Notes under the pieces: model-generated
Told to the model about the DNA's origin: nothing
Seen by the model: only the letters and a program-made list of their open reading frames with translations
Databases searched by the model: none
Part shown: positions 419 through 63,700 of the stretch, one piece after another
Layout of the letters: every line of letters begins with the position of its first letter
How positions within the stretch are numbered: position 1 is the stretch's first letter
Position numbers and translations under genes: made by a program
IMG/VR virus record: IMGVR_UViG_3300035152_000011
Source of the DNA: a virus
Direction: 5' to 3' (one strand)
DNA length: 64,000 nt

Positions 419-476
419 GTCGGCGCGCCCGACGCTAGTTTGCCGATCTCAGCTACGATCATGATAGGCTGAGTGC

Positions 477-740
477 ATGAAACGTGCGCTGACCGCTATC
501 GTCGTCTGCGTTGCCTTCTCGGGCTGCCCCCTCTGGAATGTCGCAACGGAGAAGAAAGACAACTGCGAGCCGACCGCGACCCGCTGCAACGGCAACGTCG
601 CGGAGATTTGCGGTAGCGACAAGCGGTGGGACACGAACATGGACTGCTCGGAGGTGACTGGGCTCGATGATCAGCAGTCATTCGTTTGTTGTGAGACACC
701 GGACGGGCACACCTGCCTGCCGAGCTGCGAGGAGAAGTGA
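477..740 (+). CDS. putative small secreted cysteine-rich lipoprotein
   Basis: N-terminal hydrophobic segment with lipobox-like AFSGC; 10 Cys in 87 aa. Confidence 0.5.
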   Translation: MKRALTAIVVCVAFSGCPLWNVATEKKDNCEPTATRCNGNVAEICGSDKRWDTNMDCSEVTGLDDQQSFVCCETPDGHTCLPSCEEK

Positions 741-2152: not shown

Positions 2153-2746
2153 ATGGCCGATCCGACCCCCGAGCTGGTACAGGAATTCTGGGACTTCATG
2201 AGCGGCCACTACCGCTCGAAGGTCATCAACCGCTCGAACGCGTGGGAGATGAAGGTCGTCGCGCGGTTCCTCAGCCTGATCAAGGCAATGGACGTGGACA
2301 CGTTCATGAAGGAGTACGCAACGACTCTCGGGTCGCGGATCTACATCCCGTTCGAGATCGGCGTACCACAGGAGCACTGGTCGCTCTGGGGGCAGATCAC
2401 GACCTGCGTCCACGAGCACCAGCACGTCTACCAGTACGATAAAGAGGGTCGGACGTTCATGTGGAAGTACCTGCTGCGCTCGTCCGGCCGGGCGCACTAC
2501 GAGGCCGACGCCTACCGATGCAACCTGGAGCTGCATTACTGGCGCTACGGCCGGATGCCGGATACGCATCGGCTTGCGGAGATGCTTCGCGCCTACAAAT
2601 GCAACGAGACGGACATCGCCGTGACCGAGAAGCAATTCAACCTCTCGGTGAAGACCGTCGAGCAGGGTGCGATCATCAATGAAGCCAGCCGCCGTGCCAT
2701 CAAGTGGTTGGAGCACCACGCCCCGGATCTCCGCGAGACAAGCTAG
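2153..2746 (+). CDS. hypothetical protein
   Basis: 197-aa ORF with a His-rich HEHQH segment; codon usage gene-like. Confidence 0.5.
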   Translation: MADPTPELVQEFWDFMSGHYRSKVINRSNAWEMKVVARFLSLIKAMDVDTFMKEYATTLGSRIYIPFEIGVPQEHWSLWGQITTCVHEHQHVYQYDKEGRTFMWKYLLRSSGRAHYEADAYRCNLELHYWRYGRMPDTHRLAEMLRAYKCNETDIAVTEKQFNLSVKTVEQGAIINEASRRAIKWLEHHAPDLRETS

Positions 2747-2799
2747 GTTCGTGGCCGTTCCGGCCCCCCTATAGTTCATAGGCGAGCTGTGATAGAGTT

Positions 2800-2815
2800 G
2801 ATCGCGTCTGCGATC
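2800..2815. promoter_or_regulatory. operator-like IR GATCGCGTCTGCGATC
   Basis: Member of the GATCG-N6-CGATC family; just downstream of TGATAGAGT and upstream of gene 2827. Confidence 0.5.
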
Positions 2816-2826
2816 AAGGATGACAG

Positions 2827-3537
2827 GTGGCTACGCAGCTCAAAAACATCATCGCGCACAGCAACGTCGCGGCGGGCGCGTTCTCGACGTTGCCACACCA
2901 GCTGAACCTAGATGGTCTGGGCCTGGTGCCGGATTCGGTCCAGCTCAGTAACGGCGAATTCGCATTCATCTCCGCTGACGACACGGAGATCACCGTTCGG
3001 AATAACGGTGTTGCCGTTGGAAGTTGCGACGTACTTGCTGAGCACTGGCACACCATGGAACGAACCTTCGGGCCGGAGAGCGTTACTGCGCTCACCCCGC
3101 AGCCGTTTGTTCCAGCTGGTACTAGCGGAGGCGCAGGTGGCGACACCGACCGGTATGCTCCACCCGAGAAGTGGTATCAAGCCAACGTGCCTGCTGCCCA
3201 AGCAAACGTGCCACTGAACGCGCTACTCAGTGTCAACTTCGATGACATCAAGATGATCCGCGATGGAAGCGTCGTAGGTCTTTCCACGAGGTTCAACGAA
3301 GCCGTCACCGATCCCAACGCAGGGTCGGCCGTCATCACAGTTACGATCAACGGCATTGCGGGGACCTTGGCTGTCTCACACAGCGCAGGTACCAATCCTA
3401 CTGGTGGTGAGGCGATACAAGCGGCCGGCGTCGATACCTTCGTCGCTGGCGATCTCATCGGAATCGAAATCACAACATTGGGCACGTTCGCTCCGACAAC
3501 AGCGGAGGTCGAAGCGTGGCTCGATTTTCAGTTCTAG
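2827..3537 (+). CDS. tail-fibre/receptor-binding-like protein, mosaic paralog 1
   Basis: GTG start. C-terminal about 120 aa paralogous to the C-terminus of ORF 3547..4167 (KW.Q.NV.A.Q.NV...SHS.GTNP.GG...GTFAPTT). Structural role is an inference. Confidence 0.5.
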   Translation: MATQLKNIIAHSNVAAGAFSTLPHQLNLDGLGLVPDSVQLSNGEFAFISADDTEITVRNNGVAVGSCDVLAEHWHTMERTFGPESVTALTPQPFVPAGTSGGAGGDTDRYAPPEKWYQANVPAAQANVPLNALLSVNFDDIKMIRDGSVVGLSTRFNEAVTDPNAGSAVITVTINGIAGTLAVSHSAGTNPTGGEAIQAAGVDTFVAGDLIGIEITTLGTFAPTTAEVEAWLDFQF

Positions 3538-3546
3538 GAGTAGCAG

Positions 3547-4167: not shown

Positions 4168-4192
4168 TGCGATGATCGAGTAGAGTCGGCTC

Positions 4193-5176
4193 ATGGCTGA
4201 AGGCAGACGCGGCGGCGCAAACTCGTACAGGGTCATTTCAGGTGGCGGAAATGATCCGCTTGTGCTCGCAGGCACAGCCGATCCGTCGTCGGGTGGCGGT
4301 GTCGCTGCGCCCGAGGGCAGCATCTACCTGTTGAATTCGACTGGCGCGGGCAAGAACTACTTCAAAGCCGGTGCAGCGAACACAGCATGGACCGAAGTAC
4401 CGTCGCTTGGCACCGGGCCGCTCTCGGGTGTCGAGTCAAATCTGTGGGCACCCCCGTCGTCACCGAGCAGCGAAGACGACGAATTCACGTCGGACACGCT
4501 CTCGACTGGCTGGACGACACAAGGTGATACGTTCGACGATACGACGCCGCCTGCAATCGGAGCCAATTTCAACTCGGGCAACCTTCGGTACAGCTTCTCG
4601 CAGCGGAATTCATGGTTGCGGATGCAGGCCGTTGCGGATAGCACGTACAACTACATCTTCAAGCGATTCTCTGGTTTCGAGTCGGCACTGCCGGACGGAA
4701 CCTATTGGACGCGTTTGTCACAGCAAGTGTGGTCTTCGGACAGCAGTCTCTATCCTGGTGATTGTGCCCTCGCGCTCATAATGGGGTACAGCGCGACTGG
4801 AGCATCGATCAACACCAGCGTCGATGGAATCGAGTTTTCTTCAAACGCCATAACTAGCGTCAACGGAATCTACACGTCGGTTGTCCACAGGGTAGCGGGG
4901 ACGCCGACGAGTCAGGACTTGAACGATCTCAGCGGCTACATTCCGCATGCGTACCTGGCAATCATCAAGGATGGGGACTATTTTCTGATCTACGCGAAGC
5001 CCGAAGAAGGAGCTTGGGTTTTCGTGGACGCAACTTCTCACGGTGCTGGAGCCAATAACCTAAACGCTGTTGGCTTCTTCATCAGGAACACGTACTATCA
5101 GGCTGGCGGCGTCAAGGGCAACGGCATCGTCGAGGTCGATTTCTTCCGCTATCGATCTGATGGCCAACTTCCGTAG
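4193..5176 (+). CDS. tail-fibre/receptor-binding-like protein, mosaic paralog 3 with distinct distal domain
   Basis: Shares the N-terminal GNDPLVLAGTADPS...EGSIYL module with paralog 2; unique Ser/Thr/Gly/Asn-rich C-terminal domain. Confidence 0.5.
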   Translation: MAEGRRGGANSYRVISGGGNDPLVLAGTADPSSGGGVAAPEGSIYLLNSTGAGKNYFKAGAANTAWTEVPSLGTGPLSGVESNLWAPPSSPSSEDDEFTSDTLSTGWTTQGDTFDDTTPPAIGANFNSGNLRYSFSQRNSWLRMQAVADSTYNYIFKRFSGFESALPDGTYWTRLSQQVWSSDSSLYPGDCALALIMGYSATGASINTSVDGIEFSSNAITSVNGIYTSVVHRVAGTPTSQDLNDLSGYIPHAYLAIIKDGDYFLIYAKPEEGAWVFVDATSHGAGANNLNAVGFFIRNTYYQAGGVKGNGIVEVDFFRYRSDGQLP

Positions 5177-5196
5177 CGACGCCGGCTTTGTGACAA

Positions 5197-5580
5197 ATGG
5201 CGCGCTACGCTGGCATCTTTCTGGTCCGTGATGACGGCGCTATTCTGCTCGCTAGACGCTCTCAACACGTCTCGGAGCCAGGCTGGTGGTCGATCCCTGG
5301 TGGCGCGGCAAGACTCGGAGAGCGGCCCATAGCAGCCGCCTTGCGCGAGTTTGGTGAAGAGATGGGCAGCGTCCCACCACTCCAGCTCGTGAGCGCACAC
5401 CCGGTTCGGATTCCGAAGGGCGTATTCACAACCGTCCTGGCTACCATACCGACCAATGTCGGTACGAATTGGCAGCCGCGGCTCAATTGGGAGCACGACA
5501 ACTGGGGATGGTTCCACGTCGGGCAACTTCCCCGTCCACTGCATCCAGGCGTCAGCCTGTTCGTCCGCGGAGAGAACTAA
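5197..5580 (+). CDS. NUDIX hydrolase
   Basis: Nudix box GGAARLGERPIAAALREFGEEMG matches GX5EX7REUXEEXGU. Confidence 0.75.
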   Translation: MARYAGIFLVRDDGAILLARRSQHVSEPGWWSIPGGAARLGERPIAAALREFGEEMGSVPPLQLVSAHPVRIPKGVFTTVLATIPTNVGTNWQPRLNWEHDNWGWFHVGQLPRPLHPGVSLFVRGEN

Positions 5581-5612
5581 TGGCGCAGCGAAACGCGCTA
5601 CGAAGCCAGCTA

Positions 5613-5628
5613 GATCGTAGCTGCGATC
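5613..5628. promoter_or_regulatory. operator-like IR GATCGTAGCTGCGATC
   Basis: Followed by GGTAGACT, GGCAGC and ATG 5647. Confidence 0.5.
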
Positions 5629-5646
5629 CAGTGGTAGACTGGCAGC

Positions 5647-5856
5647 ATGCCTCGACGTCAACCGCGCTACAAAGACCCCTTCCAAGGCGTGAAGGCCGCT
5701 GAGCGTCTGGCCCGTGAGGGCAATTGTCCCGGCGCTGTCATGGTCTTCGGGAACCTTTCCCGCGACGCCGCGATGAATCACCCAGGATCGGATGAAGCAG
5801 CCAGTCAGGTCTTCGGTGATCTGATCCACTTCGGGTGCGTGCGCCGCATGCGCTAG
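5647..5856 (+). CDS. small hypothetical protein
   Basis: ATG immediately after GGTAGACTGGCAGC (leaderless-promoter motif) and operator IR 5613-5628. Confidence 0.4.
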   Translation: MPRRQPRYKDPFQGVKAAERLAREGNCPGAVMVFGNLSRDAAMNHPGSDEAASQVFGDLIHFGCVRRMR

Positions 5857-5864
5857 GAGGTCCC

Positions 5865-6308
5865 ATGCTTGTCCTCGGGTTCACAGATGAACAGCTCGAC
5901 GACCTCTATGACGCAGAGCGCTGGAGCGTCGATGAGCAGCAAGAGATCATCATCGACACGGCGCGGCCTGGTGGTTTCGACCGCATCTACGCTGCCTACC
6001 TTCGAGCGGGACGTACGCCGGACCGCGTACGCTACATGATCTACCTGGCCGACGGCGCGCGCCAGTATGACATGATCGAGGAAGCGCTTGCGATTCTCCG
6101 CCAGGCGACTCGCGGCGAGCTGGAAGAGATGCGGTACCGCGCCGAACCACCGCTACGCGAGCTAATCTCACAGGTCCAGAGAGAGAAATCTGGAGGCCGA
6201 CTCAAGCTAGCGGTCGGGCTCAGCTTCGTAGCCGCACTGGCCGGCGGCGTCTCCTACTGGTACTTCCGCAAGCCGAGGAGCAATGGCCTGCCGCCGGCCG
6301 CTTTCTAA
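5865..6308 (+). CDS. hypothetical protein with C-terminal TM anchor
   Basis: AGGAGG then ATG at 5865 (trimmed from 5835); C-terminal hydrophobic helix. Confidence 0.5.
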   Translation: MLVLGFTDEQLDDLYDAERWSVDEQQEIIIDTARPGGFDRIYAAYLRAGRTPDRVRYMIYLADGARQYDMIEEALAILRQATRGELEEMRYRAEPPLRELISQVQREKSGGRLKLAVGLSFVAALAGGVSYWYFRKPRSNGLPPAAF

Positions 6309-6474
6309 GCGAGGCCATCGGGCACCGCCTTCTACACGCAAGGAACGCCGTCGTGGAGCGTACCCTATCAAAAGGTCAACGGATTTTCCTCTGGGTAGGA
6401 GGCAGCATCGTTGGCCTATCCGTCCTTGCGATGATCAAGGCGATGATCGACGTGAGTCGTGAGTCGCAACACTA

Positions 6475-6490
6475 GATCGCGGATGCGATC
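6475..6490. promoter_or_regulatory. operator-like IR GATCGCGGATGCGATC
   Basis: Upstream of TAGGGT and gene 6547. Confidence 0.45.
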
Positions 6491-6546
6491 TTGCTTGCGC
6501 TTGTCACATCGGTTGTGTAGGGTCGGCGGCTCCCAGGGGGGAACCG

Positions 6547-6765
6547 ATGGAGACGATCTCAACCTATTGCGAATGTAGCTGCCACGACGGAGTCGATCAC
6601 GGACCTGACCATCAGTGCTTTCCGGTCTGCGCGCCGTGCGCTTTCTGTCGAATGCCCGTGCGGGTCATCTTCCTGAAAGAACATCAGGACCAGTGTCCGG
6701 CCCGATTCGCACTCTCGCCCGTCGAGCAGCGAGTCGTGTTGCGGCGTGCCGCCGCAGCTCTATAG
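6547..6765 (+). CDS. small Cys-rich protein
   Basis: GGGGGG RBS-like; 11 Cys/His in 72 aa; overlaps antisense ORF 6665..6886 (ambiguous). Confidence 0.35.
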   Translation: METISTYCECSCHDGVDHGPDHQCFPVCAPCAFCRMPVRVIFLKEHQDQCPARFALSPVEQRVVLRRAAAAL

Positions 6766-7193
6766 CGCTGGCGTCACCGTCGTCTATGACGAGGTTGGCG
6801 AGCGCCTCAAGGCTCTGATCTGAGAGTGTGTCGAGCAGTGTATCGAGCGTCGATTCCTCTGTCTTGACGTCCCCAACGTCAGCCATCCCCTACCCCCTTT
6901 GCTACTCAGCTCACCCGAAACCTCGTCTAAGCGTAGCGCGTCCCGCGAATGTGTCCAGCTCGCGTCCTACTTGCGGCACACTGGCCGCGTGCGCAGATGC
7001 GCAGCTTCAGCCTTCGCCGTGCTGAAGGCATCTTCCTTGTCGTCGGTGAAGTACCCACCGTCCTCCTTGCCGCCCACCGTTCGACCGTTGACGACCGACT
7101 GCACAACGAACTGATCCCACTCAGGGTCGCGATAGATGCCTACCGAGCACTTCGTGCCGACACGGATGGTGTGAATCTTTCTACGTGCCACCT

Positions 7194-8252
7194 CTATAGC
7201 TCCTCGCGCCGCGCACGACGCTGTTGATACCAGTTGTACCCAATCAATCCGAGTGCAGCCAGTACGGCCATGCCGCCGATACTTGCACCTGCAATCCGTG
7301 CTCGGCGGTAGCTCACCACGATAGGCTTCGGCGGGTACGGCTGCGGCGCCGGAATGTCCTCGGTCGTCGGTAGCCACGGGTCGGGGATCGCCGGAGGTAT
7401 CGGCGGCGGATCAGGCAGTCCGTACATGTGTGCCTTCACGGCCTGCGCTGCGTGGAAGATGTTGGTCTTCTCGGTCTTCGAGTACGGACCGGGAATCTCA
7501 TGCGGTGCCAGTAGGAACGGTGCTTTGCCAGTGATGCGTTCCATCGCGCCGATGATGTAGCTCCGCAACTGCACTGGCAGCCGTCGGTCAGTGATTTCCA
7601 ACAGTGCTACCAGCGCTGCCATAACACTGGCGGCCGACGGCATCTCGGAGTAGCCGGCCGGTGGGTTGCGCAGCGCCAATGTGAGTAGCCCCTCGATGGT
7701 GAAGCTGTTGTAGCGGTCGGGCTCGTTCGCGAACGGCCGCACGTCGTAGACCGGGATCTTGCCGGCCCAGTACGCAGCTCGCTCACGGACCTTATCGTTC
7801 GGGTCGTTCACGAGGGCCTGGTAGTACAGCATCCGGCTCGGGCCGATAACTTGCTCGACCTTCGAGTCGGTGACGTCAGCCTGCCACATCGCCAAGTAGT
7901 GCCCGAGCGCGTTTGTCAAGTCGAGGCGTGACTGCGCATTGCACAAATCGGGCAGATTGAGGCAGCCCTGATCTTCACAGAAGGCGACATCGCAGGCTGT
8001 GAACTTGTCGCCGGCCGGGATCTGCATCCCGAGCGGCCCGATGATCGTCTGTTCCGCGGTGCGGAGCTTACTGAGCTGTTCATAGTAGTGCGTGAGTGCA
8101 AGCGCGGCAGCACGCGCCTGCTGCACGTCCCACCGGTCGTAAGTGATCGTCGTCGGCACCTGCGCGTAGAGCTGGTCGGCGGCCGTCCTCACGTCCTGGA
8201 GTGGCGTGGGCTGGCTATCGGCCCCGAGCTGGGCATATCCGACCACAAGCAT
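7194..8252 (-). CDS. membrane-anchored protein with Pro-rich linker
   Basis: 352 aa; C-terminal TM (AGASIGGMAVLAALGLIGY) preceded by a PPIPPAIPDPWLP proline-rich segment. Confidence 0.55.
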   Translation of the reverse strand: MLVVGYAQLGADSQPTPLQDVRTAADQLYAQVPTTITYDRWDVQQARAAALALTHYYEQLSKLRTAEQTIIGPLGMQIPAGDKFTACDVAFCEDQGCLNLPDLCNAQSRLDLTNALGHYLAMWQADVTDSKVEQVIGPSRMLYYQALVNDPNDKVRERAAYWAGKIPVYDVRPFANEPDRYNSFTIEGLLTLALRNPPAGYSEMPSAASVMAALVALLEITDRRLPVQLRSYIIGAMERITGKAPFLLAPHEIPGPYSKTEKTNIFHAAQAVKAHMYGLPDPPPIPPAIPDPWLPTTEDIPAPQPYPPKPIVVSYRRARIAGASIGGMAVLAALGLIGYNWYQQRRARREEL

Positions 8253-8368
8253 GACCCTACTCTATCACGCTCTCAGCGGCTCCAGGACGGCCTCAGAACG
8301 GCTCCAGAACGACTACGGCCGAGGCGCCCCTCGGGTGCCCCGGCCGCAAATGCTCCTCTCAGGCGCTC

Positions 8369-12127: not shown

Positions 12128-12537
12128 GAAGCGGTTGCTGCGTTGTCGCGCATCTGTTTCATAGCGGGGACGATTGCATCGGGCGACTGACCGGGCGCCA
12201 CGACGCAGATGAAATTCGGAAACTCGTTGATGTCGTCGATCTGACCTGCCGGGGTCGAGACGAGGTGCCGTACCATCTGTTCGGCGCGGCCGTCGGGGTG
12301 CTGGAGAAGCACCATTGCCAGCGCGATGATCGGGAACACGATCACACCGCCTTCATTGTCGGGGTCGTCATAGGCGGCGACCCATCCCGAAAACATCGGG
12401 ATGATGTTCTGGATGATGTACTGACCGGTCAGCACCGTCTGTTGCTGTGGCGGTGCGTCAGCCGACTGTTCAGCGGGCTGCTCGGCCGTATCAGAGGGCT
12501 TCTCTTCAGCGTCTTTGCCTAGATCGAACATGTCCAT
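12124..12537 (-). CDS. hypothetical protein
   Basis: 137-aa acidic N-terminus, hydrophobic core. Confidence 0.45.
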   Translation of the reverse strand: MDMFDLGKDAEEKPSDTAEQPAEQSADAPPQQQTVLTGQYIIQNIIPMFSGWVAAYDDPDNEGGVIVFPIIALAMVLLQHPDGRAEQMVRHLVSTPAGQIDDINEFPNFICVVAPGQSPDAIVPAMKQMRDNAATAS

Positions 12538-12542
12538 GAGGA

Positions 12543-12875
12543 CTATGTATCAGAAAGGTGTGACAATGTGCGGTATTCCACGGGCTGTCCGAGCGCTTCA
12601 GCGTGCTCGATGCCCTTCTGCATGCCTGGAGCGATGCCGCGGTCGGTGTAAACCACCGTCGCTTCTGCGGCCTGCCGCCAGGCAAACCCGGCTTCGATCC
12701 CGTGACGCCGCTCCGCCGGATCGTCATCATCGAGCACGCCTGGCTGGGTGTAGATCGCGTGTGAAGCAAACGGTGCCTCCCCGCGACTAAGACTGTCCCG
12801 AAGGGCGGCTCGCAAGTAGGTGAGGTTCTCTTCGACGTCGCCTGCGTAAGGGCTTTCGATGATCACGCGTCGCAT
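12543..12875 (-). CDS. hypothetical protein
   Basis: 110 aa; VIIESPYAG N-terminus. Confidence 0.45.
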   Translation of the reverse strand: MRRVIIESPYAGDVEENLTYLRAALRDSLSRGEAPFASHAIYTQPGVLDDDDPAERRHGIEAGFAWRQAAEATVVYTDRGIAPGMQKGIEHAEALGQPVEYRTLSHLSDT

Positions 12876-16575: not shown

Positions 16576-17044
16576 GCTTCAGCTCTCTCGGGTTGATAAT
16601 TTCTACGTCCCGCCGCACTGTGTTGGCGAATAGGACTGTGTTTGCGGAGCCGCCCGGACTACCGTTCCAGACGGCAAGTAGGAGCGCGCAGTGATTGACC
16701 ACCCAGTGGTTGCGTGCGTCGAGCTTCCACCGGGCGTAGCCCGGGTCGGAGACGTAGACTACCTCATCGGCCTGGCCGAGAAGCTCGTAGTAGTGGCGCT
16801 GCGACTCGAAGGGCCATCGGCTCGCTTGGCCCTGAAAAGGGACTGCCGCGGTGAAAGGGATCTCCAGTTCGATGCACGCCTGCGCAAAGTATTGGTCCGC
16901 GCCGAGCGCCATGCCGGTGATCCCTCGCGTCGCCTTCACCCTGACGAGCACAGCCTTTACCGCAGCGATGATTGGACTGCGGAGGGGCTCGTCATACCCC
17001 CCATCGAGCTTATGCGGCCGGTGGCCGGTTACGCCTACAATCAT
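16478..17044 (-). CDS. SLOG-family YpsA-like (DUF1273) protein
   Basis: VTGHRPHKL, ITGMALGAD, PFQGQASRWP and RNHWVVNHCALLLAVWNGSPGGS follow the YpsA/DUF1273 architecture. Confidence 0.65.
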   Translation of the reverse strand: MIVGVTGHRPHKLDGGYDEPLRSPIIAAVKAVLVRVKATRGITGMALGADQYFAQACIELEIPFTAAVPFQGQASRWPFESQRHYYELLGQADEVVYVSDPGYARWKLDARNHWVVNHCALLLAVWNGSPGGSANTVLFANTVRRDVEIINPRELKHAEQTAGARRPSLVAPRTDAHVRQQGEGAGDA

Positions 17045-17142
17045 GGTTGGACACTAACAGATCGGGGTGACAAGACCGGGGCCAGTTCGGATGGCTGACT
17101 CGAACTAGGAAACGAGTCGGAGGACTGGCCCCGGTCTTGATA

Positions 17143-38866: not shown

Positions 38867-38909
38867 ATGTCTGGGTGATCGTAGCCGCGATCCAGTGTAG
38901 TATCGACGC

Positions 38910-39275
38910 ATGGCCCGTGACCTGTGCAGGCGCCCCAGCCTACGCGACGTCCATTTCTTCAGTCAGCATGCCGGCTACGTGGAGGGCCGCAAGCTCGAAG
39001 GGTCACTTCAGCTCGCCCGTGCAGAATGCGCAGCCGATCAGATGGGTTGGACGACCGAGTGGATTCCTGACTACGAGCCTGACCTGTCGTGGATGACGCC
39101 AAAGGAGCAGCGCGAGCCCCATGAGGTCTTCTGCGCGTCCATGACAAGCCCGAACGGCGACCACCAGGCCTCGATCTGTGGCATCGTCGATCCCAGCTCG
39201 GCTGACCAACGCGTCATCGAGGCCTCGCTCGCGCTCGAAGCGCGTGCCTACCAACGACTTCAGAGGAAACGCTGA
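38910..39275 (+). CDS. hypothetical protein
   Basis: 121-aa ORF. Confidence 0.4.
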   Translation: MARDLCRRPSLRDVHFFSQHAGYVEGRKLEGSLQLARAECAADQMGWTTEWIPDYEPDLSWMTPKEQREPHEVFCASMTSPNGDHQASICGIVDPSSADQRVIEASLALEARAYQRLQRKR

Positions 39276-41728: not shown

Positions 41729-42313
41729 CTAGCACTCCTTCGGAATCTTGCCAGTGAGCTGTTTGATGACTCTACACGCCTCGGCTCTCGTCATGGTGCC
41801 CATCATGCGAGCCATCTCGGGCGCCATCTTGAGCGTGCCCCGCGCGATGCGGAGCTGATGACGTTCGGGGACAGTGAGCTTGCGCCGACCAGGGCCGTGC
41901 AGCGCGTTGAAATATCGTGTTGCCTCTTCGAGATCCGTAGTCTCTAGCTCGGCATCGCCGCCGATGATGTTACGGCGTGTGCTCCGCGAATCGACGTTTC
42001 GGAGCACACGATACGTCAGACTCGAACCGCGGCCTTCACGTAGTAGGAGATCAACGCCTGTTTCGCGGCCGATGGGACCCCGAGCACGACTCTTGAGAAT
42101 CGACCGAGAAACCCGACCGGGGCCGCGGAGCGTGACGCCCGGGGGTGGATTGAATACGGGGCGCCAACACGGACCCTGGTGCTTCGGATCAGCGCAGTAG
42201 GCAGGGTTGAGCCGATCTGCCATCTTCTGCGCGGCCCGAAGCGTGTTGAAGCAGCCCTCGAATTCACGCCGACCACTACGGCCCGGGTACGCCAGCAACC
42301 AGTTGCATCGCAT
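41729..42313 (-). CDS. hypothetical protein
   Basis: ATG at 42313 sits 6 nt downstream of the GATAGACT -10-like element and operator IR (leaderless arrangement). Confidence 0.45.
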   Translation of the reverse strand: MRCNWLLAYPGRSGRREFEGCFNTLRAAQKMADRLNPAYCADPKHQGPCWRPVFNPPPGVTLRGPGRVSRSILKSRARGPIGRETGVDLLLREGRGSSLTYRVLRNVDSRSTRRNIIGGDAELETTDLEEATRYFNALHGPGRRKLTVPERHQLRIARGTLKMAPEMARMMGTMTRAEACRVIKQLTGKIPKEC

Positions 42314-42330
42314 GCAGCCAGTCTATCCTG

Positions 42331-42346
42331 GATCGCAGCTGCGATC
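42331..42346. promoter_or_regulatory. operator-like IR GATCGCAGCTGCGATC (perfect palindrome)
   Basis: Between the tRNA 3-prime end and the GATAGACT/ATG of minus-strand gene 41729..42313. Confidence 0.5.
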
Positions 42347-44619: not shown

Positions 44620-45018
44620 CGAGGTACTCCCTGGTGCGGTCGATTGCCTTCTGCGAGATGCCGTTCTTCTGCATCGCTTCCTCCCAACCTGGCTTCTCGC
44701 TCACAGCTGGGTAGTTGTCGGCCCAGTCACAACGCGCACCGATCCAGTAGCGGTCCGGGTCGGCGAAGACCTCGATGCCCATCGTCTCGATGTACGGCCG
44801 GGCCTCGCACGGGCTATCGCTACAGCATCCGCAGTTGAACCGGAAGTCCACCTGGTCGGCGCGGTTGTTGACGCTCTTCGAGCAGAAGCGCTTGTTTTTC
44901 CAGCGGTCGGTGCTGACCTTCAGGTCGGGAAACTCGGCCTGGAGCGCGTTGATAAGCTCGGCGTGTTTGGCAGCCTTGCTGGCCTTGTCCAACTCTCTCT
45001 TGACTGTCTCGTCCATTG
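44537..45018 (-). CDS. hypothetical protein
   Basis: Starts MDETVKRELDKA at 45018, 26 nt from the divergent + strand gene; upstream part of the 307-aa track ORF is read-through across a duplicated module. Confidence 0.45.
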
Positions 45019-45043
45019 ATCTCTCCTGTGATAGATTGGGGAC
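44981..45043 (+). promoter_or_regulatory. conserved promoter module copy 1 (TTGACT...TGATAGATT + 7 nt + ATG)
   Basis: About 63-bp segment repeated at 45395-45458 and partly at 45881-45907, each ending TGATAGATTGGGG[N]CATG. Confidence 0.5.
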
Positions 45044-45322
45044 ATGCTTGGAGACGCGTTTCTTACTATTCCCGTCCCGGAAGCGGAGCAGGCGGTAGGC
45101 TCGACGCTGCACGAATTCCTGCCTGCTGGTTCGGGATCGAAGACCGTGACCATGAGCTACCGGCCCGACGAGAGCGGCGGCACGGACATGACCAAACTGC
45201 TCATCTGGATGCGCAGTCCGTTGGAGAAGCCGTCCACCTACATCATCGGCGGTGGAGTCGTCGTGGCGCTGTTGGCCGGCGTGCTCATAGGCCGCGCAAC
45301 CAAACGATGCCAGAGCACCTAG
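45044..45322 (+). CDS. small membrane protein
   Basis: ATG 7 nt after TAGATT (leaderless); C-terminal TM IIGGGVVVALLAGVLIG. Confidence 0.45.
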   Translation: MLGDAFLTIPVPEAEQAVGSTLHEFLPAGSGSKTVTMSYRPDESGGTDMTKLLIWMRSPLEKPSTYIIGGGVVVALLAGVLIGRATKRCQST

Positions 45323-45394: not shown

Positions 45395-45458
45395 GGCCTT
45401 GTCCAACTCGTTTTTGACTGTCTCGTCCATTGATCTCTCCTGTGATAGATTGGGGGTC
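45395..45458 (+). promoter_or_regulatory. conserved promoter module copy 2
   Basis: Near-identical to 44981-45043. Confidence 0.5.
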
Positions 45459-45656
45459 ATGGCGAAGAAGAGTAAGAAGGCGTGCTACTGGGTCGGCCGA
45501 CGCGTCGAGCTGCATCCCGGGCTTGACCGTTGGATGATGGGTGACCGCTTCGGTGTGGTTACCAAGTGCGGCCGCGCGGGCAGCGTCTACGTCAAGCTCG
45601 ACAAGTCGGGCAAGACCATGCGCCTCCCCGAAGGCCGCTTCGAGGAGGTCTGGTAG
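45459..45656 (+). CDS. small hypothetical protein
   Basis: MAKKSKKACYWVGRR...; leaderless ATG after module copy 2. Confidence 0.45.
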   Translation: MAKKSKKACYWVGRRVELHPGLDRWMMGDRFGVVTKCGRAGSVYVKLDKSGKTMRLPEGRFEEVW

Positions 45657-45865: not shown

Positions 45866-45880
45866 TCATCGCAGCAGCTT

Positions 45881-45907
45881 TGATTGCTCCTGTGATAGAT
45901 TGGGTCC
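45881..45907 (+). promoter_or_regulatory. conserved promoter module copy 3 (partial)
   Basis: TGATTGCTCCTGTGATAGATTGGGTCC immediately before ATG 45908. Confidence 0.45.
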
Positions 45908-57448: not shown

Positions 57449-58460
57449 GGCGTTGTAGCCGTCCAGGCGCTGCCGCTGGATTGCGGGCGCATTTGGCCTT
57501 CCTGATGAACTTGCGGGCGTGGAAGCATCGACCTTCCCAGGCCGCCTTGATGGCCTCGGTCAACGATTCTGTGCTGCCGCAGTAGAATGTGGCGTCCTTG
57601 CGGAGCTGCTGCGCGAGCGCGTCGGCCATGTCGTACTCGCGTGGACATCCAGGAGCTTGTGGATGACGATGCTGGAAGGCTTCGACCTGCTCCTCCCACG
57701 GAGAAAGCTCGTCCTCGGGAATGTCCTCCCAATCGTCGTAATCGTCTTCCCAGGCACCGACGGCGCTTCCCTTCCGACCGCGGACCGCCAGCGCGGTCGC
57801 CGCGCCAGCTCCGACTAGGAGTGTCGCCCCGCCGGCCCACCAGGCCCATCTGGGAATCTTGGATAGCCAGCTGATCTGGTAGTCCGCGGCCGGCGCGGCG
57901 CGTCCTTCCTCGATCTCTTCACCAGCTGCTTGCGCGGCCATCTTCTCCTGCAAGCACTTGATGGCCTGCTGGGTCGAGACGAGCAGTTCGTGCGGCCGTC
58001 CGACGTAATTGCGAGCCGGCTCAGTATCGATGAGATAGCTGATCGGGACGTCCTTGGCCAGCGCGTCCTCGAAGTAGGCAATGTCCGTGAAGATGTAGGG
58101 CGATGAACCGGAGCTGGCAACACCCTCCTTGCGCCCAGGAAGGATGTAGTGATTGTGGTTGTAGATGCAGCCGCCCTTACCGGCTGCCTCGATGATCGTG
58201 TTCCACCCGCCTGCGTGGACGAAGGCGACTGGGTACATGTAGCTCCATCCGTACCCCGACGATCCAGTCTCGTCATCCACGAGCACGTATTTGTAGCGTG
58301 TGAATGGCGCTGGTTTGCCGGAAGGATCGACCACCGGTTCCTTTAGCAGTCCCGTGAGGAACGACTCGAAGGCCTTGAGTGTGTCGATGTCGGCTTGGGT
58401 GACAACCGCGTTGGGATCAGTGAAGGCAAGGCCACAGCCACACGACGAGATAGTCAGCAT
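57438..58460 (-). CDS. hypothetical lipoprotein-like / membrane protein
   Basis: N-terminal MLTISSCGCG; internal TM WAWWAGGATLLVGAGAATALAV; acidic C-terminus. ATG 7 nt after GTAGCGT and operator IR. Confidence 0.5.
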   Translation of the reverse strand: MLTISSCGCGLAFTDPNAVVTQADIDTLKAFESFLTGLLKEPVVDPSGKPAPFTRYKYVLVDDETGSSGYGWSYMYPVAFVHAGGWNTIIEAAGKGGCIYNHNHYILPGRKEGVASSGSSPYIFTDIAYFEDALAKDVPISYLIDTEPARNYVGRPHELLVSTQQAIKCLQEKMAAQAAGEEIEEGRAAPAADYQISWLSKIPRWAWWAGGATLLVGAGAATALAVRGRKGSAVGAWEDDYDDWEDIPEDELSPWEEQVEAFQHRHPQAPGCPREYDMADALAQQLRKDATFYCGSTESLTEAIKAAWEGRCFHARKFIRKAKCARNPAAAPGRLQRRGW

Positions 58461-58479
58461 GGCTTCTACGCTACCATAG

Positions 58480-58495
58480 GATCGTAGATGCGATC
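58480..58495. promoter_or_regulatory. operator-like IR GATCGTAGATGCGATC
   Basis: Upstream (minus strand) of GTAGCGT and ATG 58460. Confidence 0.5.
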
Positions 58496-59128: not shown

Positions 59129-59458
59129 CTATTCGGGCTTCTTCGGCGGCTCGCCCGTTTCGGGCAGCTCAGGCGCGGCTAGCGTTGGGGCCGGAGCTGG
59201 AGCCACGATTGGTTTGGGCTTCTTCGGCGCGCGGGGCACGCGAGTCTTCTGTCGAACGCCGTTGATGTAGCAGACGCCCGTGGTCTCACCGAGCGTCCCG
59301 AATCCACGTTGGCCCTTCTTGATACACACTTTGCGGCCGGTGCCTTCGGGCTTCGAGAGCATCCCGGCCATCTCCTCGACGATCTTCTTGGACCCCTTCG
59401 GAGTGGCAGTGACGCCTGTCTCGTAGACGCCCCAATACTGGTAGCTCTTCTTTGCCAT
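59129..59458 (-). CDS. hypothetical protein with Pro/Lys-rich tail
   Basis: ATG 6 nt after GATAGGGT and operator IR 59475-59490. Confidence 0.45.
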   Translation of the reverse strand: MAKKSYQYWGVYETGVTATPKGSKKIVEEMAGMLSKPEGTGRKVCIKKGQRGFGTLGETTGVCYINGVRQKTRVPRAPKKPKPIVAPAPAPTLAAPELPETGEPPKKPE

Positions 59459-59474
59459 GGCCCTACCCTATCAT

Positions 59475-59490
59475 GATCGTGCATGCGATC
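59475..59490. promoter_or_regulatory. operator-like IR GATCGTGCATGCGATC
   Basis: Upstream (minus strand) of GATAGGGT and ATG 59458. Confidence 0.5.
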
Positions 59491-59620: not shown

Positions 59621-59980
59621 TCATGCAAGCTGCCCCCGGACCTGACCGATCATGAAATCTGCCAGGACGTTGGCGTAGAGGTCAGTGAACGTGTTTCTAC
59701 CAGCCGCGCTCTCTTCGATGAAGGCCTCGGCCTCGCGTTTGCCTTCCTCGGTCGCGGCCCAGCCGACCTCCATTCCAGCCGCGGTCTGCTGTGCGATAGC
59801 CTGGATCTTCTCGACGACCTCCGCTCTGGCCTTCTCGAACTTCGACAGGGCGTTGGCGGCAACGGCGGCGGCTTCCTGGATCTCGGGCGAGGCGCTGGCG
59901 AACATGGTCGTGCTCCAACAGCAGATGACTTGATTGGCGAATGCCGGCGGTGGCGGCTCCATGCCGTCTGTGTAGCACAC
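59621..59980 (-). CDS. hypothetical protein
   Basis: 119-aa Ala-rich helical ORF. Confidence 0.4.
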   Translation of the reverse strand: MCYTDGMEPPPPAFANQVICCWSTTMFASASPEIQEAAAVAANALSKFEKARAEVVEKIQAIAQQTAAGMEVGWAATEEGKREAEAFIEESAAGRNTFTDLYANVLADFMIGQVRGQLA

Positions 59981-59991
59981 AGGTCTGACAG

Positions 59992-60402
59992 TTAACGGAG
60001 CTTGCGCACCATGACGGGGTACAGCTCATCGAAGATGTACGTGAATCCGTGCCTCTCATAGAAACGGAGCAGATCGTCGAGGTGTCCATGCTCGGGCTGC
60101 GCGTGCAGATAGACTTCTCGAACGCCGAGGTCATGTAGCGCAGTCAAAGCGCGCGTCAACATCTCGCTCCCGATACCTCGCCCACGAGCTGGCTCGCTGA
60201 CTTCCATTCCCGAGATGTAGCCCACACGCTTTCGTGGTGGAAGATGGAGAGCTAACAACCGAAACCCTTGCTCGTTGAGGTAGTCGGCCACTTTGTTTCC
60301 CGTCCCGTACACTGCTGCGAGGTAGATGTCGTCCCATTCATCGTCGAATGCGTAGACCTCACCAGAGGTTGCCGACCAGGGCTCTACGTCAACGTCGATC
60401 AC
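59992..60402 (-). CDS. GNAT N-acetyltransferase
   Basis: Motif A RGRGIGSEML, motif B FYERHGF. Confidence 0.65.
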   Translation of the reverse strand: MIDVDVEPWSATSGEVYAFDDEWDDIYLAAVYGTGNKVADYLNEQGFRLLALHLPPRKRVGYISGMEVSEPARGRGIGSEMLTRALTALHDLGVREVYLHAQPEHGHLDDLLRFYERHGFTYIFDELYPVMVRKLR

Positions 60403-60459
60403 GCGCTCAGCATATCACACACGATCAACAACGCGAGAAGCCGCAAAGCGCGCCGCCAG

Positions 60460-60768
60460 CTAGCGCTTCTTACGTGGAATCACCACGAATACCCGCCCCT
60501 CGACGTTGCAGCCACCCCCGTACTTTCTTGGTGCCAGGTAGCCGAGTGTAACCTCGTAGTGGCTCGCGACGACCTCTCCCCGCTTCACCTCCTGGCCCTG
60601 ACTCTGCACGTTGCACGCAATCATGCCGTTCTTGCGCGCAATGGCCCGAGCGACCGCTCTTGCAGGGGTGTAATCGGCCTCACTCATGACTGCATATGCG
60701 GGGATCTTGAAGCGGCTACCGCCATGACGGACGTTGCCGTAGGTGTTGAAGCTGATGCGCTGTGCCAT
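60460..60768 (-). CDS. hypothetical protein
   Basis: 102-aa ORF. Confidence 0.4.
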   Translation of the reverse strand: MAQRISFNTYGNVRHGGSRFKIPAYAVMSEADYTPARAVARAIARKNGMIACNVQSQGQEVKRGEVVASHYEVTLGYLAPRKYGGGCNVEGRVFVVIPRKKR

Positions 60769-60780
60769 ACGGCTACTTTA

Positions 60781-63700
60781 TCAACAACGCGAGAAGCCGC
60801 AAAGCGCGCACTTGGCGCATCCCTCGCCGTAGTAGAGTGCGACCTGGTGGCAGTCAGGGCAGATGTCGCCGAAGCGGTGCTTGTGTCCGTTGCCGTTCGA
60901 CTTGCCGTTGCCGTTGCTGTGGCCGTTGGAGGGCTTCACAGCGACTGGCGGCGCCGTCACAGCCTTAGCAAGCGCCTCGACGGGGGTGATCGTCTTGGCC
61001 GCCTGGCGAGCTTCCAGGGACTCTGCAAGCGAACGGAGAGCCTTGGCGACGCCATCTGGCAGTGAGAGCACTCGATCCTGGCCGAAGCCAACCGAGTCGC
61101 CGCCGCCGATGCCCGACAGCTGGTCGGCGATGAGCTGAAGTCGCCGCTCAGGCTTGATGGGACTGTCCATGCGGAGGACCAGCGACCCGAGGCGGGCGAT
61201 GGCCTCGCAGTCAGCGCTCACGGCCGTTCCAGCTCGGGACACTGCGAGCCAGGTCTCGAACGGCCGGTCGTTGGTATCCAGGCCGACCTTGACGCTGAGC
61301 TTGCCGGTCGGCGTCTTCACCATCTGCCCGAGCAGGTCGTAGACACCCGTCGGGATCGGATGAAGCTCCGGCCGGGCGATGCTCGCGCCGATGGTCAGCG
61401 TTTGGCCCTCGCGGCTCTTGTCGCGGTAGACCGTGATGCCCTTGCACCCCTCGTCCCAGGCCATACGGTAGGCCTGCTCGACATCCTCGACGGTCGCGCC
61501 CTCGGGCAGGTTGATTGTGTTATGGGACACGATACCGTTTACAACGTACTCGTGTGCGGACTCGACTTCGATGTCAAACATCTCTACCAGACCGGCATCT
61601 TCTACCGCCCGCACTAAGTAGACCGGAGTATCTGTGGACCAGCCCATCGCATGAGCAACACGGTTCGTGCAGTAGTGTCGGCCTGTCTCTTGACGAAGGC
61701 TTCGGACAGCACCGTAGTGGGGATGATCGGTCGGCACATGCTGATCAAGAACGGCCCGGTCGAGCAATACTTTGTAGCTCGTGGATGCTGGTTGTGCATT
61801 CTTGTGCTTTTCGATGCACTGCACGATCTCCTGAGCAGCGTTGCTCAAGATGACGTAGTGAAAAACACCGCCCGGAGCGCCTTTGTGGCCCTGATACACG
61901 GAGGGGAGCCCAAAACTTCGTGCCAGTTCGGCGACGTGGTATGCGAGTGTTTCGGACATGCCGCCGTATACACAGAGCGCGCCGCGTACGAGATACCCGT
62001 CGAGTGTGACGCCGCGAAGGAATGCGCGTTTCTCATCCGCGCTACCTTGAAGAACTTGAATAGGAGCGCGCTTCTCGAACGCGCCCTTCCCGATCAGCGC
62101 CTCTACGTAACGGACCAGATTGCGGGATGTGAGGTAGACGCAACGAACGCCTGTTCGGCGATCTTCGACGGTACGCGGACTGACGTTGAAGACCTCATTT
62201 GTCAACGTGATGAAGCGCGCTTCGACCTCTTCGTCCTTGCAGCTCAGTCCGACTTGTCCTGTGGACTCGACTGTATGGCCATCAGCGCATAGCATTCCCA
62301 GCCATTCAGCCAGTGGCGGTGTCATCGCCTTGGGGGTAGCGATACGTGACGCGTTGGTATGCCACTCATCGGACCACTGGATTGTAGCATCACCGGGCCC
62401 GTGCGCTGCCATGAACCGTCCTAGCACTACGTCGCCGATCTTCAGATCCCGCATGAGCTTCCAGCCATCTGCTGTCTGCACTCGATGCGTAGCCTCGGCG
62501 CCAGTTAGTACGGCACCGTTGTCTAGTTTGATTCGTACTGCACGCCCGATACCGAGGCGGTAGTGCGACAGAATACGGTGACCGCCCGTCGTGACGCTCT
62601 GGTCCAGTTTTTGGAACGTGTCGTCCGCGGTCACGTCTGAGAACGACTCGACTGGGACAAGTCCCATTGACGTGGGAATCAACGTCCCCGCGGCAAGGCA
62701 CTTCGATACGGCGTCCTCGACGTGGCGCTGAAAAGCGGCCTGCATACGGATGTGGTACTCGGGGCTGATCTCGTTGGCGATGGCGAACACGCGCTGCCAA
62801 CGCGACGGTACGTCCGGGTCGTCCTTGACGGTGCCGTTCTCCTTCACGCGTTCGAGCAGCTCTTCACTGTAGAACCCCTCGCGCTTGGCGACCTCGATGA
62901 ACATCGGGTTGACGTCCACCATCTCCATGTCCGCTTGCTTGCGGGTCTGGACGATAGCGAACAGCGGCTCGATGCCACTGGAGCACCCGGCGATGATGGA
63001 GATGCTGCCAGTGGGTGCGATGACCGTGCAGGTCGCGTTGCGGCGATGCTTGCGGCCGTTGGTGAAGTGCTTGGATTTCTCGAAGAGCGGGAACGGTCCT
63101 CGGAGCGCAGCCAGCTCTTCACTGGCCTCGACGGCCTTGGTCGCAATGAACCGCTCGACCTCTTCGGCCAGGTCGAGAGCCTGCTGCGATCCGTAGGGGA
63201 TTCCCATCTTTACCAGCAGGTCAGCCCAGCCCATCACGCCCAGCCCGATTTTCCTACTCGCGCGGGTCTGCTCGTGAATCTGTGAAACCGGATATTGATT
63301 GACGTCGTGGACGTCATCGAGGAAGCGCACCGCATCCTGGATGACCTCTTCGAGCCGCTTGAAGTCGATCTTCGCCCCGACTGCGTCGTCGAGGTAGAAG
63401 TTGGCCAGGTTGATCGAGCCGAGGTCGCAGGCGTCGTACGGCCGGAGAGGGACCTCCCCACACGGATTGCACGCCTCGACCTCGCCCACGGCGCCCGCCA
63501 GCGGGTCCAGCTCGTTTACCCGGTCGAGGAAGAACAGTCCCGGTTCCCCTGACGCGTGTGCGTTCTTCACGACGTGGTTCCAGACGTCGCGCGCACGGAG
63601 CGTTCCAGTCACTTCCTTCGTGCGGGGATTGACCAGCTCGTACTCCGTATCCTCATCGACAGCCTTCATGAAGGCGTTGGTGACTCCGACGCTGATGTTG

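Follow-up and report, generated by a model that had tools for sequence, protein, structure and literature searches.

A TANNNT motif about 12 bp before the start is the signature of leaderless genes, which average 19% in Actinobacteria and 39% in Deinococcus-Thermus (PMC3160421), and in Deinococcus radiodurans a -10 motif lying 6-7 bp before open reading frames (ORFs) acts as a promoter (PMC12340547). Here we describe a similar arrangement, an extended -10 element directly in front of the start codon, in a 64,000 nt stretch of viral DNA (IMG/VR record IMGVR_UViG_3300035152_000011; hereafter the window). A preliminary description of this DNA had pointed to the element and had called the layout typical of Actinobacteria and Deinococcus hosts, a statement that matches the leaderless, -10-adjacent genes documented in Actinobacteria and Deinococcus-Thermus (PMC3160421, PMC4007540, PMC12340547).

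Two further systems bear on the arrangement. Most transcripts of the Thermus phage Lalka27a are leaderless, with 5' ends mapped 6 nt past TANNNT; some promoters carry TGx and lack a -35, as is also reported for phiYS40, and the late promoters have a TAGGGT box, are leaderless and share a universally conserved C at -25 (bioRxiv 10.64898/2026.04.20.719267). The actinobacterial activator PafBC recognizes the motif tGTCgg(N10)tA(N3)T, whose upstream portion, the '-26 element' spanning -23 to -28, stands in promoters that have no -35 (PMC8635444); PafBC inserts between the DNA and sigma region 4, with the -26 element replacing the -35 (PMC8635444, PMC6789036).

Candidate leaderless gene starts

Gene starts were taken mostly from independent Joint Genome Institute (JGI) and Logan gene calls on identical contigs (a JGI soil metagenome and a Logan assembly), with gaps filled by our own codon-usage caller; the first pass gave 98 starts, and 99 after a YpsA gene was added. 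TANNNT precedes the start codon with a spacer of 6 nt in 14 of the 99 genes and of 7 nt in a further four (18/99 in total), while any other spacer from 0 to 39 is found in only 0-2 genes each. In the first pass the motif stood at a 6-7 nt spacer before 17 of 98 starts as against 19 of 3598 (0.53%) ATG or GTG triplets that are not starts (binomial P ~6e-21). Stricter forms are enriched too: TAGRST-N6-ATG matches seven times where dinucleotide shuffles give 0.64 on average and never seven, and TAGRNT-N6-RTG matches 12 times where 2.7 are expected. TGNTA occurs at the 6-7 nt spacer in 19 genes. Beyond the 18 strict sites, four more (starts 12537, 23932, 49610 and 59962) match TGnTA at this spacing but depart from the hexamer in its last base. 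Together, the 18 strict and four imperfect sites give 22 candidate leaderless starts among the 99 genes. All eight sites named in the preliminary description are present in the sequence, and its estimate of at least eight such genes was too low.

Aligned on the hexamer, the 22 sites give the consensus T(-15)G(-14)R T(-12)A(-11)G A N T(-7) N5 C(-1) A(+1)TG, with the following base counts.

Position -15: T, 18/22
Position -14: G, 20/22
Position -13: A or G, 20/22
Position -12: T, 22/22
Position -11: A, 22/22
Position -10: G, 18/22
Position -9: A, 16/22
Position -7: T, 18/22
Position -1: C, 20/22
Position +1: A, 20/22; G, 2/22

The C at -1 distinguishes these sites (20/22) from the other genes (17/76; Fisher 6.7e-9). 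A pyrimidine at -1 followed by a purine at +1 is the initiation context preferred by RNA polymerase, and the C(-1)/A(+1) pair thus argues, quite apart from the hexamer, for transcription starting on the start codon. The 22 sites as a whole have no conserved column between -36 and -16, and a scan of positions 1-20000 for E. coli-type -35/-10 pairs (TTGACA-N16-18-TATAAT type) returned one site where four are expected, on which account a two-hexamer promoter model was dropped. Given this lack of any conserved upstream column and the nearly empty scan, the sites are, judged by their sequence, extended -10 promoters without a -35.

A usable Shine-Dalgarno sequence is absent from all 22 sites, which bears out what had been said of the starts first cited; the sole regular-expression match among them (AGGA at 42313) lies 5' of the hexamer and not at a functional distance. 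GGAG, GAGG or AGGA stands at the usual distance in 38 of the 98 first-pass genes, and such tetramers peak at the same distance as the hexamer, in other genes. At 15 of the sites, all with a 6 nt spacer, the hexamer begins with a TAG or TAA that stops the frame of the gene four codons ahead of its ATG, so that the ORF cannot extend upstream, and the 12 bases before the ATG hold no Shine-Dalgarno sequence. The JGI and Logan calls agree on the start for 18 of the 22 genes (16 TANNNT sites, 12537 and 59962); for the start at 49610 the agreement is partial only, as the two covering calls differ. Pfam domains begin at residue 4 of the exonuclease starting at 49610 and at residue 5 of the YpsA/SLOG protein starting at 17044, and the SNF2 proteins of the window and of a related contig, L001 (see below), align from Met1.

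It is probable, on the evidence of the sequence, that these sites are extended -10 promoters that start transcription on the start codon and produce leaderless mRNAs; we infer the transcription start sites from the 6-7 nt spacing, the C(-1)/A(+1) context, the absence of Shine-Dalgarno sequences, the position of the sites at the head of gene blocks and their conservation in L001, all of which support the leaderless translation proposed in the preliminary description. A bacterial RNA polymerase of the housekeeping-sigma type would read the promoters through the extended -10 (TGnTAGnnT) without a canonical -35. As a C stands at -1 and the hexamer ends 6 or, less often, 7 nt ahead of the start codon, transcription is expected to begin on the first base, A or G, of the ATG or GTG, and the ribosome would load directly on the 5'-terminal start codon of an mRNA that has neither a 5' leader nor a Shine-Dalgarno sequence. 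About 22 of the 99 genes would use this layout, mostly genes heading gene blocks, and the sequence 5' of the -10 would set sub-classes marked by a palindrome, by TGTCR or by the extended -10 only. The description of the sites as a dedicated promoter class needs qualification: the core looks like an ordinary housekeeping-sigma extended -10, although the sub-classes, with at least two upstream elements, do differ.

The window and its relatives

The window covers the replication and nucleotide-metabolism region of a phage-like genome of roughly 150 kb and has a G+C content of 60-63%. A sequence identical to it is present in IMG metagenome 3300042731, which a preprint counts among the largest public soil metagenomes, and two IMG/VR contigs of 147-150 kb, L001 and L002, are syntenic with it at 70-78% nucleotide identity. 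The soil sequence and this synteny identify the window as part of a large uncultivated soil phage. A more distant relative, L027 (52% G+C, 66-72% identical), was found through DNA polymerase alignment in a metagenome scan.

The palindrome class

At six sites a 16 bp palindrome, GATCGYRNNYRCGATC, ends 4-6 nt 5' of the hexamer (about -33 to -18). The leaderless starts of this class are 477, 5647, 38910, 42313, 58460 and 59458, and a promoter with the same type of -10 and a leader may be set beside them.

445..479, plus strand: palindrome-class leaderless promoter; GATCTCAGCTACGATC at 445-460, TGATAGGCT at 462-470, 6 nt spacer, ATG 477; the gene that follows (477-740) encodes 87 aa and has an identical JGI start
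5613..5649, plus strand: palindrome-class leaderless promoter, the site on which the preliminary description centred; GATCGTAGCTGCGATC at 5613-5628, TGGTAGACT at 5632-5640, GGCAGC, ATG 5647 of a 69 aa gene
38877..38912, plus strand: palindrome-class leaderless promoter; palindrome 38877-38892, TAGTAT 38898-38903, ATG 38910
42311..42346, minus strand: palindrome-class leaderless promoter; GATCGCAGCTGCGATC at 42331-42346, TAGACT 42325-42320, ATG 42313 of a 194 aa gene; just downstream of tRNA-His (42355-42429)
58458..58495, minus strand: palindrome-class leaderless promoter; palindrome 58480-58495, TGGTAGCGT, 7 nt, ATG 58460 of a 340 aa gene
59456..59490, minus strand: palindrome-class leaderless promoter; palindrome 59475-59490, TGATAGGGT, 6 nt, ATG 59458
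2790..2829, plus strand: same -10 type with a leader; TGATAGAGT at 2790-2798, GATC palindrome 2800-2815 in the predicted leader, AAGGA, GTG 2827

Four of these had been cited at the outset and stand where they were placed: 5633-5649 reads GGTAGACTGGCAGCATG, the ATG of the minus-strand copy at 42313 occupies 42313-42311, and the minus-strand copies with ATG 58460 (TAGCGT, 7 nt) and ATG 59458 (TAGGGT, 6 nt) are both present.

The palindrome is not confined to these promoters. GATCG-N6-CGATC occurs 13 times in the window where 0.24 are expected and GATC-N8-GATC 20 times where 1.9 are expected, and 15 of these 20 are intergenic although intergenic DNA makes up 10% of the window (P = 1.6e-11). Copies at 2800, 50379 and 13486 lie inside predicted leaders, just before the Shine-Dalgarno sequence, and one at 38191, after the methyltransferase gene, is conserved in position in L001 and L027. 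The symmetry, the 2 bp of play in the distance to the hexamer and the copies 3' of promoters point to an operator for a dimeric protein, most likely a regulator and probably a repressor rather than a polymerase contact. Each half-site of the promoter palindrome contains one GATC, the two being 12 bp apart, and GATC is over-represented in the window rather than avoided (463 as against 328 expected). Since the phage also encodes a Dam-family enzyme, a methylation-sensitive switch at the palindrome is conceivable.

The TGTCR class

About 11 promoters carry TGTCR exactly 10 nt 5' of the hexamer (-28 to -24), and six of them are leaderless (starts 12537, 17044, 23932, 49610, 51864 and 59962); those with leaders serve the nuclease gene (25623), gene 52374, probably the ORF at 6547, possibly tRNA-His, and a transcript entering a repeat array (47190).

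12535..12565, minus strand: TGTCR-class leaderless promoter; TGTCACACC, TTTC, TGA, TACATA, GTCCTC, ATG 12537 of a 137 aa gene
17042..17072, minus strand: TGTCR-class leaderless promoter; TGTCACCCC, GATC, TGT, TAGTGT, CCAACC, ATG 17044 of the YpsA/SLOG-like gene (16478-17044)
23904..23934, plus strand: TGTCR-class leaderless promoter of the SNF2 helicase gene; TGTCAG, N7, TGG, TAGAGC, TTCACC, ATG 23932
49552..49612, both strands: divergent leaderless pair sharing GGTGTCACACC; the minus half is TGGTAGAAT, 7 nt and ATG 49554, and the plus half, of the TGTCR class, is TGTCACACC-GAGC-TGG-TAGAAA, 6 nt and ATG 49610 of an RNase_T exonuclease gene
51835..51866, plus strand: TGTCR-class leaderless promoter; TGTCAG, N7, TGG, TAGATT, 7 nt, ATG 51864
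59960..59990, minus strand: TGTCR-class leaderless promoter; TGTCAGACC, TGTG, TGC, TACACA, GACGGC, ATG 59962
25548..25625, plus strand: TGTCR-class promoter with a leader; TGTCACACC, CAGG, TGG, TAAGTA, ~50 nt leader with GGGGGA, ATG 25623 of a PD-(D/E)XK nuclease gene
52332..52376, plus strand: TGTCR-class promoter with a leader; TGTCACACC, CGGC, TGA, TAACGT, 20 nt including GGAGG, ATG 52374
46993..47014, plus strand: TGTCR-class promoter; TGTCACACC, CGTT, TGC, TAGTGT; points into a CRISPR-like array and a TnpB-like gene

TGTCACACC-N4-TGN-TA, allowing one mismatch at most, matches seven times where 0.01 are expected, and TGTCR-N8-TGN-TA nine times where 0.42 are expected, with an identical 10 nt distance to the hexamer in all. 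The hexamer ends in T in only six of the 11 promoters. L001 has the element too, among other places at its orthologous nuclease and SNF2 promoters, and so does L027. The fixed 10 nt spacing of the element fits a component of the initiation complex, and by analogy with the PafBC promoters of Actinobacteria an activator most likely binds it and substitutes for the -35 contact. That activator may be PafBC of the host, a different host protein or one encoded by the phage. A sequence on the minus strand at 42468-42489, TGTCATAGCCACGCGCTATGGT, lies ~38 nt upstream of tRNA-His and may be its TGTCR-class promoter.

A second palindromic operator, GGTGTSACACC, was considered and rejected: GTGTSACAC with one mismatch gives 12 matches as against 17 expected and is thus not enriched, so that the signal is the asymmetric TGTCR at its fixed distance from the -10. 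A sigma-54 reading of TGGCAGCATGC was rejected by eye because the GG-to-GC spacing is wrong.

The YpsA/SLOG (DprA-like) gene at 16478-17044 (minus strand; 188 aa, Pfam 6.5e-10, aligned from residue 5) had been skipped by the automatic annotation, in which Prodigal placed a gene on the other strand (16691-17098). What brought it to light was the TGTCR-class leaderless promoter in front of its ATG.

The extended -10-only class

At all other sites the extended -10 stands without an upstream element.

4181..4195, plus strand: leaderless promoter, without TGn; TAGAGT, 6 nt, ATG 4193 of a 327 aa gene
8250..8267, minus strand: leaderless promoter in a 116 nt intergenic gap; TGATAGAGT, AGGGTC, ATG 8252 of a 352 aa gene (7194-8252)
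45016..45046, plus strand: extended -10-only promoter, cassette copy 1; TGATAGATT, GGGGAC, ATG 45044; divergent from the Shine-Dalgarno-led gene 44537-45016
45430..45461, plus strand: cassette copy 2; TGATAGATT, GGGGGTC (7 nt), ATG 45459
45880..45910, plus strand: cassette copy 3; TGATAGATT, GGGTCC, ATG 45908
46965..46979, minus strand: leaderless promoter; TAGACT, AGCGCC, GTG 46967 of a 66 aa gene with a weak Xre-like helix-turn-helix match
53710..53727, plus strand: leaderless promoter; TGATAGACT, GGCAGC, ATG 53725; the upstream gene ends with the TGA of the motif
60400..60417, minus strand: leaderless promoter; TGATATGCT, 6 nt, GTG 60402 of a GNAT acetyltransferase gene
60766..60783, minus strand: leaderless promoter; TGATAAAGT, 6 nt, ATG 60768; the ribonucleotide reductase gene ends with the TGA of the motif

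Two earlier statements are corrected here. The site first placed at 53705 exists, and its true position is 53710-53727 (sequence TGATAGACTGGCAGCATG); the triplicate is likewise present, at 45029-45046, 45443-45461 and 45893-45910, although the GGGGNC spacer ascribed to it fits the first copy only.

The triplicated cassette spans 32-85 nt, and its opposite strand carries the Shine-Dalgarno sequence and first codons of a leftward gene. Over 44957-45911 this divergent promoter cassette is tandemly triplicated, with copy 2 retaining ~20 first codons of the leftward gene, and the first and second small rightward genes are each followed by a copy of a 49 nt box (45320-45368, 45654-45702); the region looks like cassette-style gene swapping between conserved flanks. 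A 27-mer, GCGCTTTGCGGCTTCTCGCGTTGTTGA (60417-60443 and 60783-60809, minus strand), forms the end of the ribonucleotide reductase gene and also that of the gene after it (60460-60768). As each copy is directly followed by a leaderless promoter, the junction between gene end and promoter has been duplicated.

Genomic context and conservation

Every divergent strand switch has its candidate promoter or promoters (23932, 42313, 45044, 46967, and 49554/49610, which lie back to back). In general the sites either open gene blocks or sit in gaps of 25-270 nt, and the Shine-Dalgarno-led genes mostly abut or overlap the preceding gene. Terminator-like hairpins with T-runs lie directly 5' of 38910 (at 38840-38870) and of 51864.

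Comparison with L001 shows which parts of a promoter are kept. At the SNF2 promoter only CTGTCAG, TG.TAGAG and ATGG are shared and both spacers have fully diverged; the promoter and leader of the nuclease gene (25623) are conserved. Between the methyltransferase region and the 39275 orthologue the DNA of L001 has been replaced, yet a terminator and TAGTAT, 6 nt and ATG are still present, directly before that orthologue; in the window TAGTAT, 6 nt and ATG head an extra gene, 38910. The geometry is thus kept whichever gene follows. More leaderless sites of this kind, TGATACCGT and TGATACGCT, both 6 nt ahead of an ATG, lie in non-syntenic DNA of L001.

Alternative explanations

Several observations count against leaderless promoters at some or all of the sites. 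T at -7 is absent from four of the 22 hexamers (TACATA, TAGAGC, TAGAAA and TACACA), which alone would be poor -10 elements of the sigma-70 type. The three TGATAGATT sites are tandem copies of one cassette and so are not independent; at the third, 45908, the start is ambiguous, the JGI call preferring a downstream GTG (45935) with a weak Shine-Dalgarno sequence. The starts 53725, 60768 and 4193 lie only 12-25 nt past the preceding gene, where translational coupling or upstream read-through is a live alternative. DNA polymerase, ribonucleotide reductase and TnpB gave no taxonomic host signal in tblastn searches against phages, and Pfam searches of ~60 products of the 64 kb window found no clear regulator, neither a sigma factor nor a WYL protein.

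The three tightly packed sites would be accounted for if the motif were a translation or punctuation signal, TGATAG offering stops in two frames and long polycistronic mRNAs, transcribed from far upstream, being translated by re-initiation or another non-Shine-Dalgarno route. At 53710 and 60783 the TGA of the motif does end the preceding gene, with a gap of 12 nt; TAG is an in-frame stop at most of the 6 nt spacer sites, and the three sites 12-25 nt behind an upstream gene fit such a signal. Stop codons leave unexplained, however, the invariant T-12 and A-11, T-7, the TG at -15/-14, C-1 and the rigid 6-7 nt spacing, and most sites are found where the strand switches, past terminator-like hairpins or in gaps that measure 55-270 nt. 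At 42313, 45044, 46967, 49554, 49610 and 23932 no same-strand upstream ORF is there to terminate, and the TGTCR element at a fixed 10 nt matches a known promoter geometry. We give this explanation a slim chance. Slimmer still is the chance that the class is inflated by duplication, a few promoter-gene junctions having been copied so that recurrence reflects common descent, an account we regard as extremely unlikely. It draws on the three TGATAGATT sites in their tandem repeat, of which copies 1 and 2 share 85 nt at 86% identity, on TAGACTGGCWGCATGC, common to 5635, 53713 and 42311, and on the upstream 27-mer common to 60402 and 60768. The other sites have unrelated flanks, spacers and downstream genes, and the downstream proteins are not paralogues; removing duplicates costs at most five sites and leaves ~17 independent ones where ~0.5 are expected, and orthologous promoters keep their geometry despite fully diverged spacers.

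A different objection accepts leaderless promoters and assigns them to a phage-encoded polymerase or sigma-like factor, for which TGTCR...TGNTA, or palindrome plus TAG box, would be one contiguous recognition sequence. The motif is tighter than a generic TANNNT (G-10 in 18/22, A-9 in 16/22), T-7 can be missing from sites of the TGTCR class, the upstream elements persist in relatives of 52-62% G+C, and for the late promoters of Thermus phages (TAGGGT, conserved C at -25) a phage factor is believed necessary. In the 64 kb window, out of a genome of roughly 150 kb, no RNA polymerase or sigma gene was recognized, though, TGn plus TAnnnT plus 6 nt plus purine is the exact housekeeping-sigma signature, and the 2 bp variation in the distance from palindrome to hexamer argues against one rigid recognition unit. 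We consider a phage factor unlikely, and leaderless promoters read by a housekeeping-sigma-type polymerase remain the preferred reading.

Proposed regulation and utility

A more specific scheme, drawn by analogy and in our view doubtful, would make the members of the TGTCR class, which is conserved in three related phages, sigma-adaptation promoters. A probably virulent phage would wire its helicase, nuclease, exonuclease and DprA-like genes and the TnpB-associated array to the host DNA-damage activator PafBC, which senses single-stranded DNA, or to a phage analogue acting at -26; replication intermediates would then switch on middle genes, many of them leaderless, and the GATC palindrome would add a second layer, possibly made methylation-sensitive by the phage Dam-type enzyme. 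A literature search on PafBC and bacteriophage promoters found no paper on that geometry in a phage, and if the -26 match is confirmed this would be the first phage found to use that activation mechanism.

The motif has uses of its own. Leaderless status fixes the start codons of about one fifth of the genes, and the motif recovers genes that were missed or mis-started, namely the YpsA-like gene 16478-17044 and probably the starts 45908 and 49554. It amounts to a nearly complete promoter map for an uncultivated phage lineage, and the two conserved upstream elements offer testable handles on temporal control. The layout also narrows the likely host to lineages with many leaderless genes, the Actinobacteria and Deinococcota or, less likely, the Acidobacteria or Myxococcota.

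Other features of the window

The genes to which a function could be assigned include the following.

17143-19779, minus strand: protein with a major-vault-protein shoulder domain
23932-25533: SNF2 helicase
25623-27026: PD-(D/E)XK nuclease
27299-28165: Sak4-like annealing protein
29472-33242: family A DNA polymerase with a UDG domain
33624-34265: thymidylate kinase
35285-37315: DEAD-type helicase
37287-38192: Dam-type D12 methyltransferase (N6-adenine)
42355-42429: tRNA-His
47917-49152: TnpB-like protein
60781-63987, minus strand: class II ribonucleotide reductase, intein-split

The intein of the class II (B12-dependent) ribonucleotide reductase carries a LAGLIDADG homing-endonuclease domain (residues ~475-823). 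The DNA polymerase has 1256 aa with UDG, 3'-5' exonuclease and Pol A domains; its L001 orthologue has 1004 aa, and ~820 nt of the gene (29633-30453) are not present there. The 878 aa protein at 17143-19779 (minus strand), with major-vault-protein shoulder and repeat domains (Pfam 1e-28), is unusual for a phage genome. A run of very small, extremely Lys/Arg-rich proteins at 38239-38813 (for example MARKKKAKKAQWK...), kept in L001 at 17500-17880, may be DNA-condensing or histone-like. At 54262-56605 (minus strand) lie five successive genes of ~140-175 aa each, one of them a GNAT acetyltransferase, and four of the five have a near-identical GCCTGTCCnCGCAAGATnGAnCTnAGCGG just 5' of the next start, with a variant before 54786; the recurrence of this sequence before successive starts points to a tandem paralogous family with a conserved C-terminus.

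The CRISPR-like array (47190-47838) comprises 12 repeats of 29 nt (GGCGTCCCCACGCGGGTGTGGAGTGCTGG; nine near-perfect and three degenerate) with spacers of 16-35 nt, and lies directly 5' of the 411 aa TnpB/Cas12f-like gene (47917-49152) and 3' of the TGTCR-class promoter at 46993. Its spacers match only copies of the same phage. Rfam found only tRNA in the window, and no CRISPR-repeat family or other RNA.

Two 8 kb pieces of the window had no DNA-level match by megablast among 50,697 phage records, and tblastn with the primase-helicase found no phage, matching plasmids only, at 23-26% identity. Scans of viral contigs with the 488 aa, 352 aa, 340 aa and MVP-like proteins yielded no relatives, the ribonucleotide reductase found relatives only ~30% identical, and SNF2 found nothing in the metagenome scan. 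Host inference was uninformative both with TnpB, whose matches in genome contigs of Chloroflexia, cyanobacteria and archaea did not exceed 33% identity, and with the 197 aa protein. Among the ~60 products the sole helix-turn-helix-type Pfam match is one weak Xre-like match.

Comparison with known systems

The sites share with the leaderless genes of Actinobacteria and Deinococcus-Thermus the TANNNT 6-7 nt before ATG or GTG, the absence of Shine-Dalgarno sequences, a proportion of ~20% of genes and the coexistence with genes led by GGAG-type Shine-Dalgarno sequences. They differ in belonging to a phage, in a tighter hexamer, TAGAnT, where the commonest form in D. radiodurans is TACACT, and in the nearly constant presence of the TGn extension and of C at -1.

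Lalka27a offers a parallel in a phage. The C of TGTC stands at -25 in the TGTCR-class sites, as does the conserved C of the Lalka27a late class, and a TAG box is general here, although TAGGGT itself occurs in the window only at 59458 and, with a leader, at 6518-6523. The window comes from soil and not from hot springs and has no DNA-level match in the phage collection; its upstream element is TGTCACACC rather than a single C, and the GATC palindrome is not described for Lalka27a. The Thermus Lalka phages with Cas12r systems also resemble the window in having a TnpB-like gene and 29 bp repeats, those of the Lalka phages resembling type I-E repeats, but the array is upstream of the TnpB-like gene here and downstream in Lalka. 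Such phage-borne Cas12r systems have been proposed to be thermophile-specific, whereas the array of the window is from soil.

The middle promoters of phage T4, which depend on MotA ('sigma appropriation'), similarly have a ~9 bp box at a fixed distance 5' of the -10 that replaces the -35. The MotA box is centred near -30 and differs in sequence, T4 mRNAs have leaders, and no MotA or AsiA homologue was seen in the window.

The PafBC-dependent (RecA-NDp) hybrid promoters of Actinobacteria ('sigma adaptation') resemble the TGTCR class in TGTCAC-N10-TAnnn(T), with GTC at -27 to -25, in the 22 nt length, in the lack of a -35 and in the DNA-metabolism genes that are driven, here those for the SNF2 helicase, the PD-(D/E)XK nuclease, a DnaQ-like exonuclease and a DprA/SLOG-like protein; unlike in the PafBC motif, GTC is followed by AC(ACC) and not by gg, TGn is conserved and T-7 is often missing. 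The leaderless architecture as such is already known and involves no new mechanism. Less expected are the tight box (TGRTAGAnT...C-ATG) and the two conserved upstream elements, one of which has the -26 geometry of PafBC.

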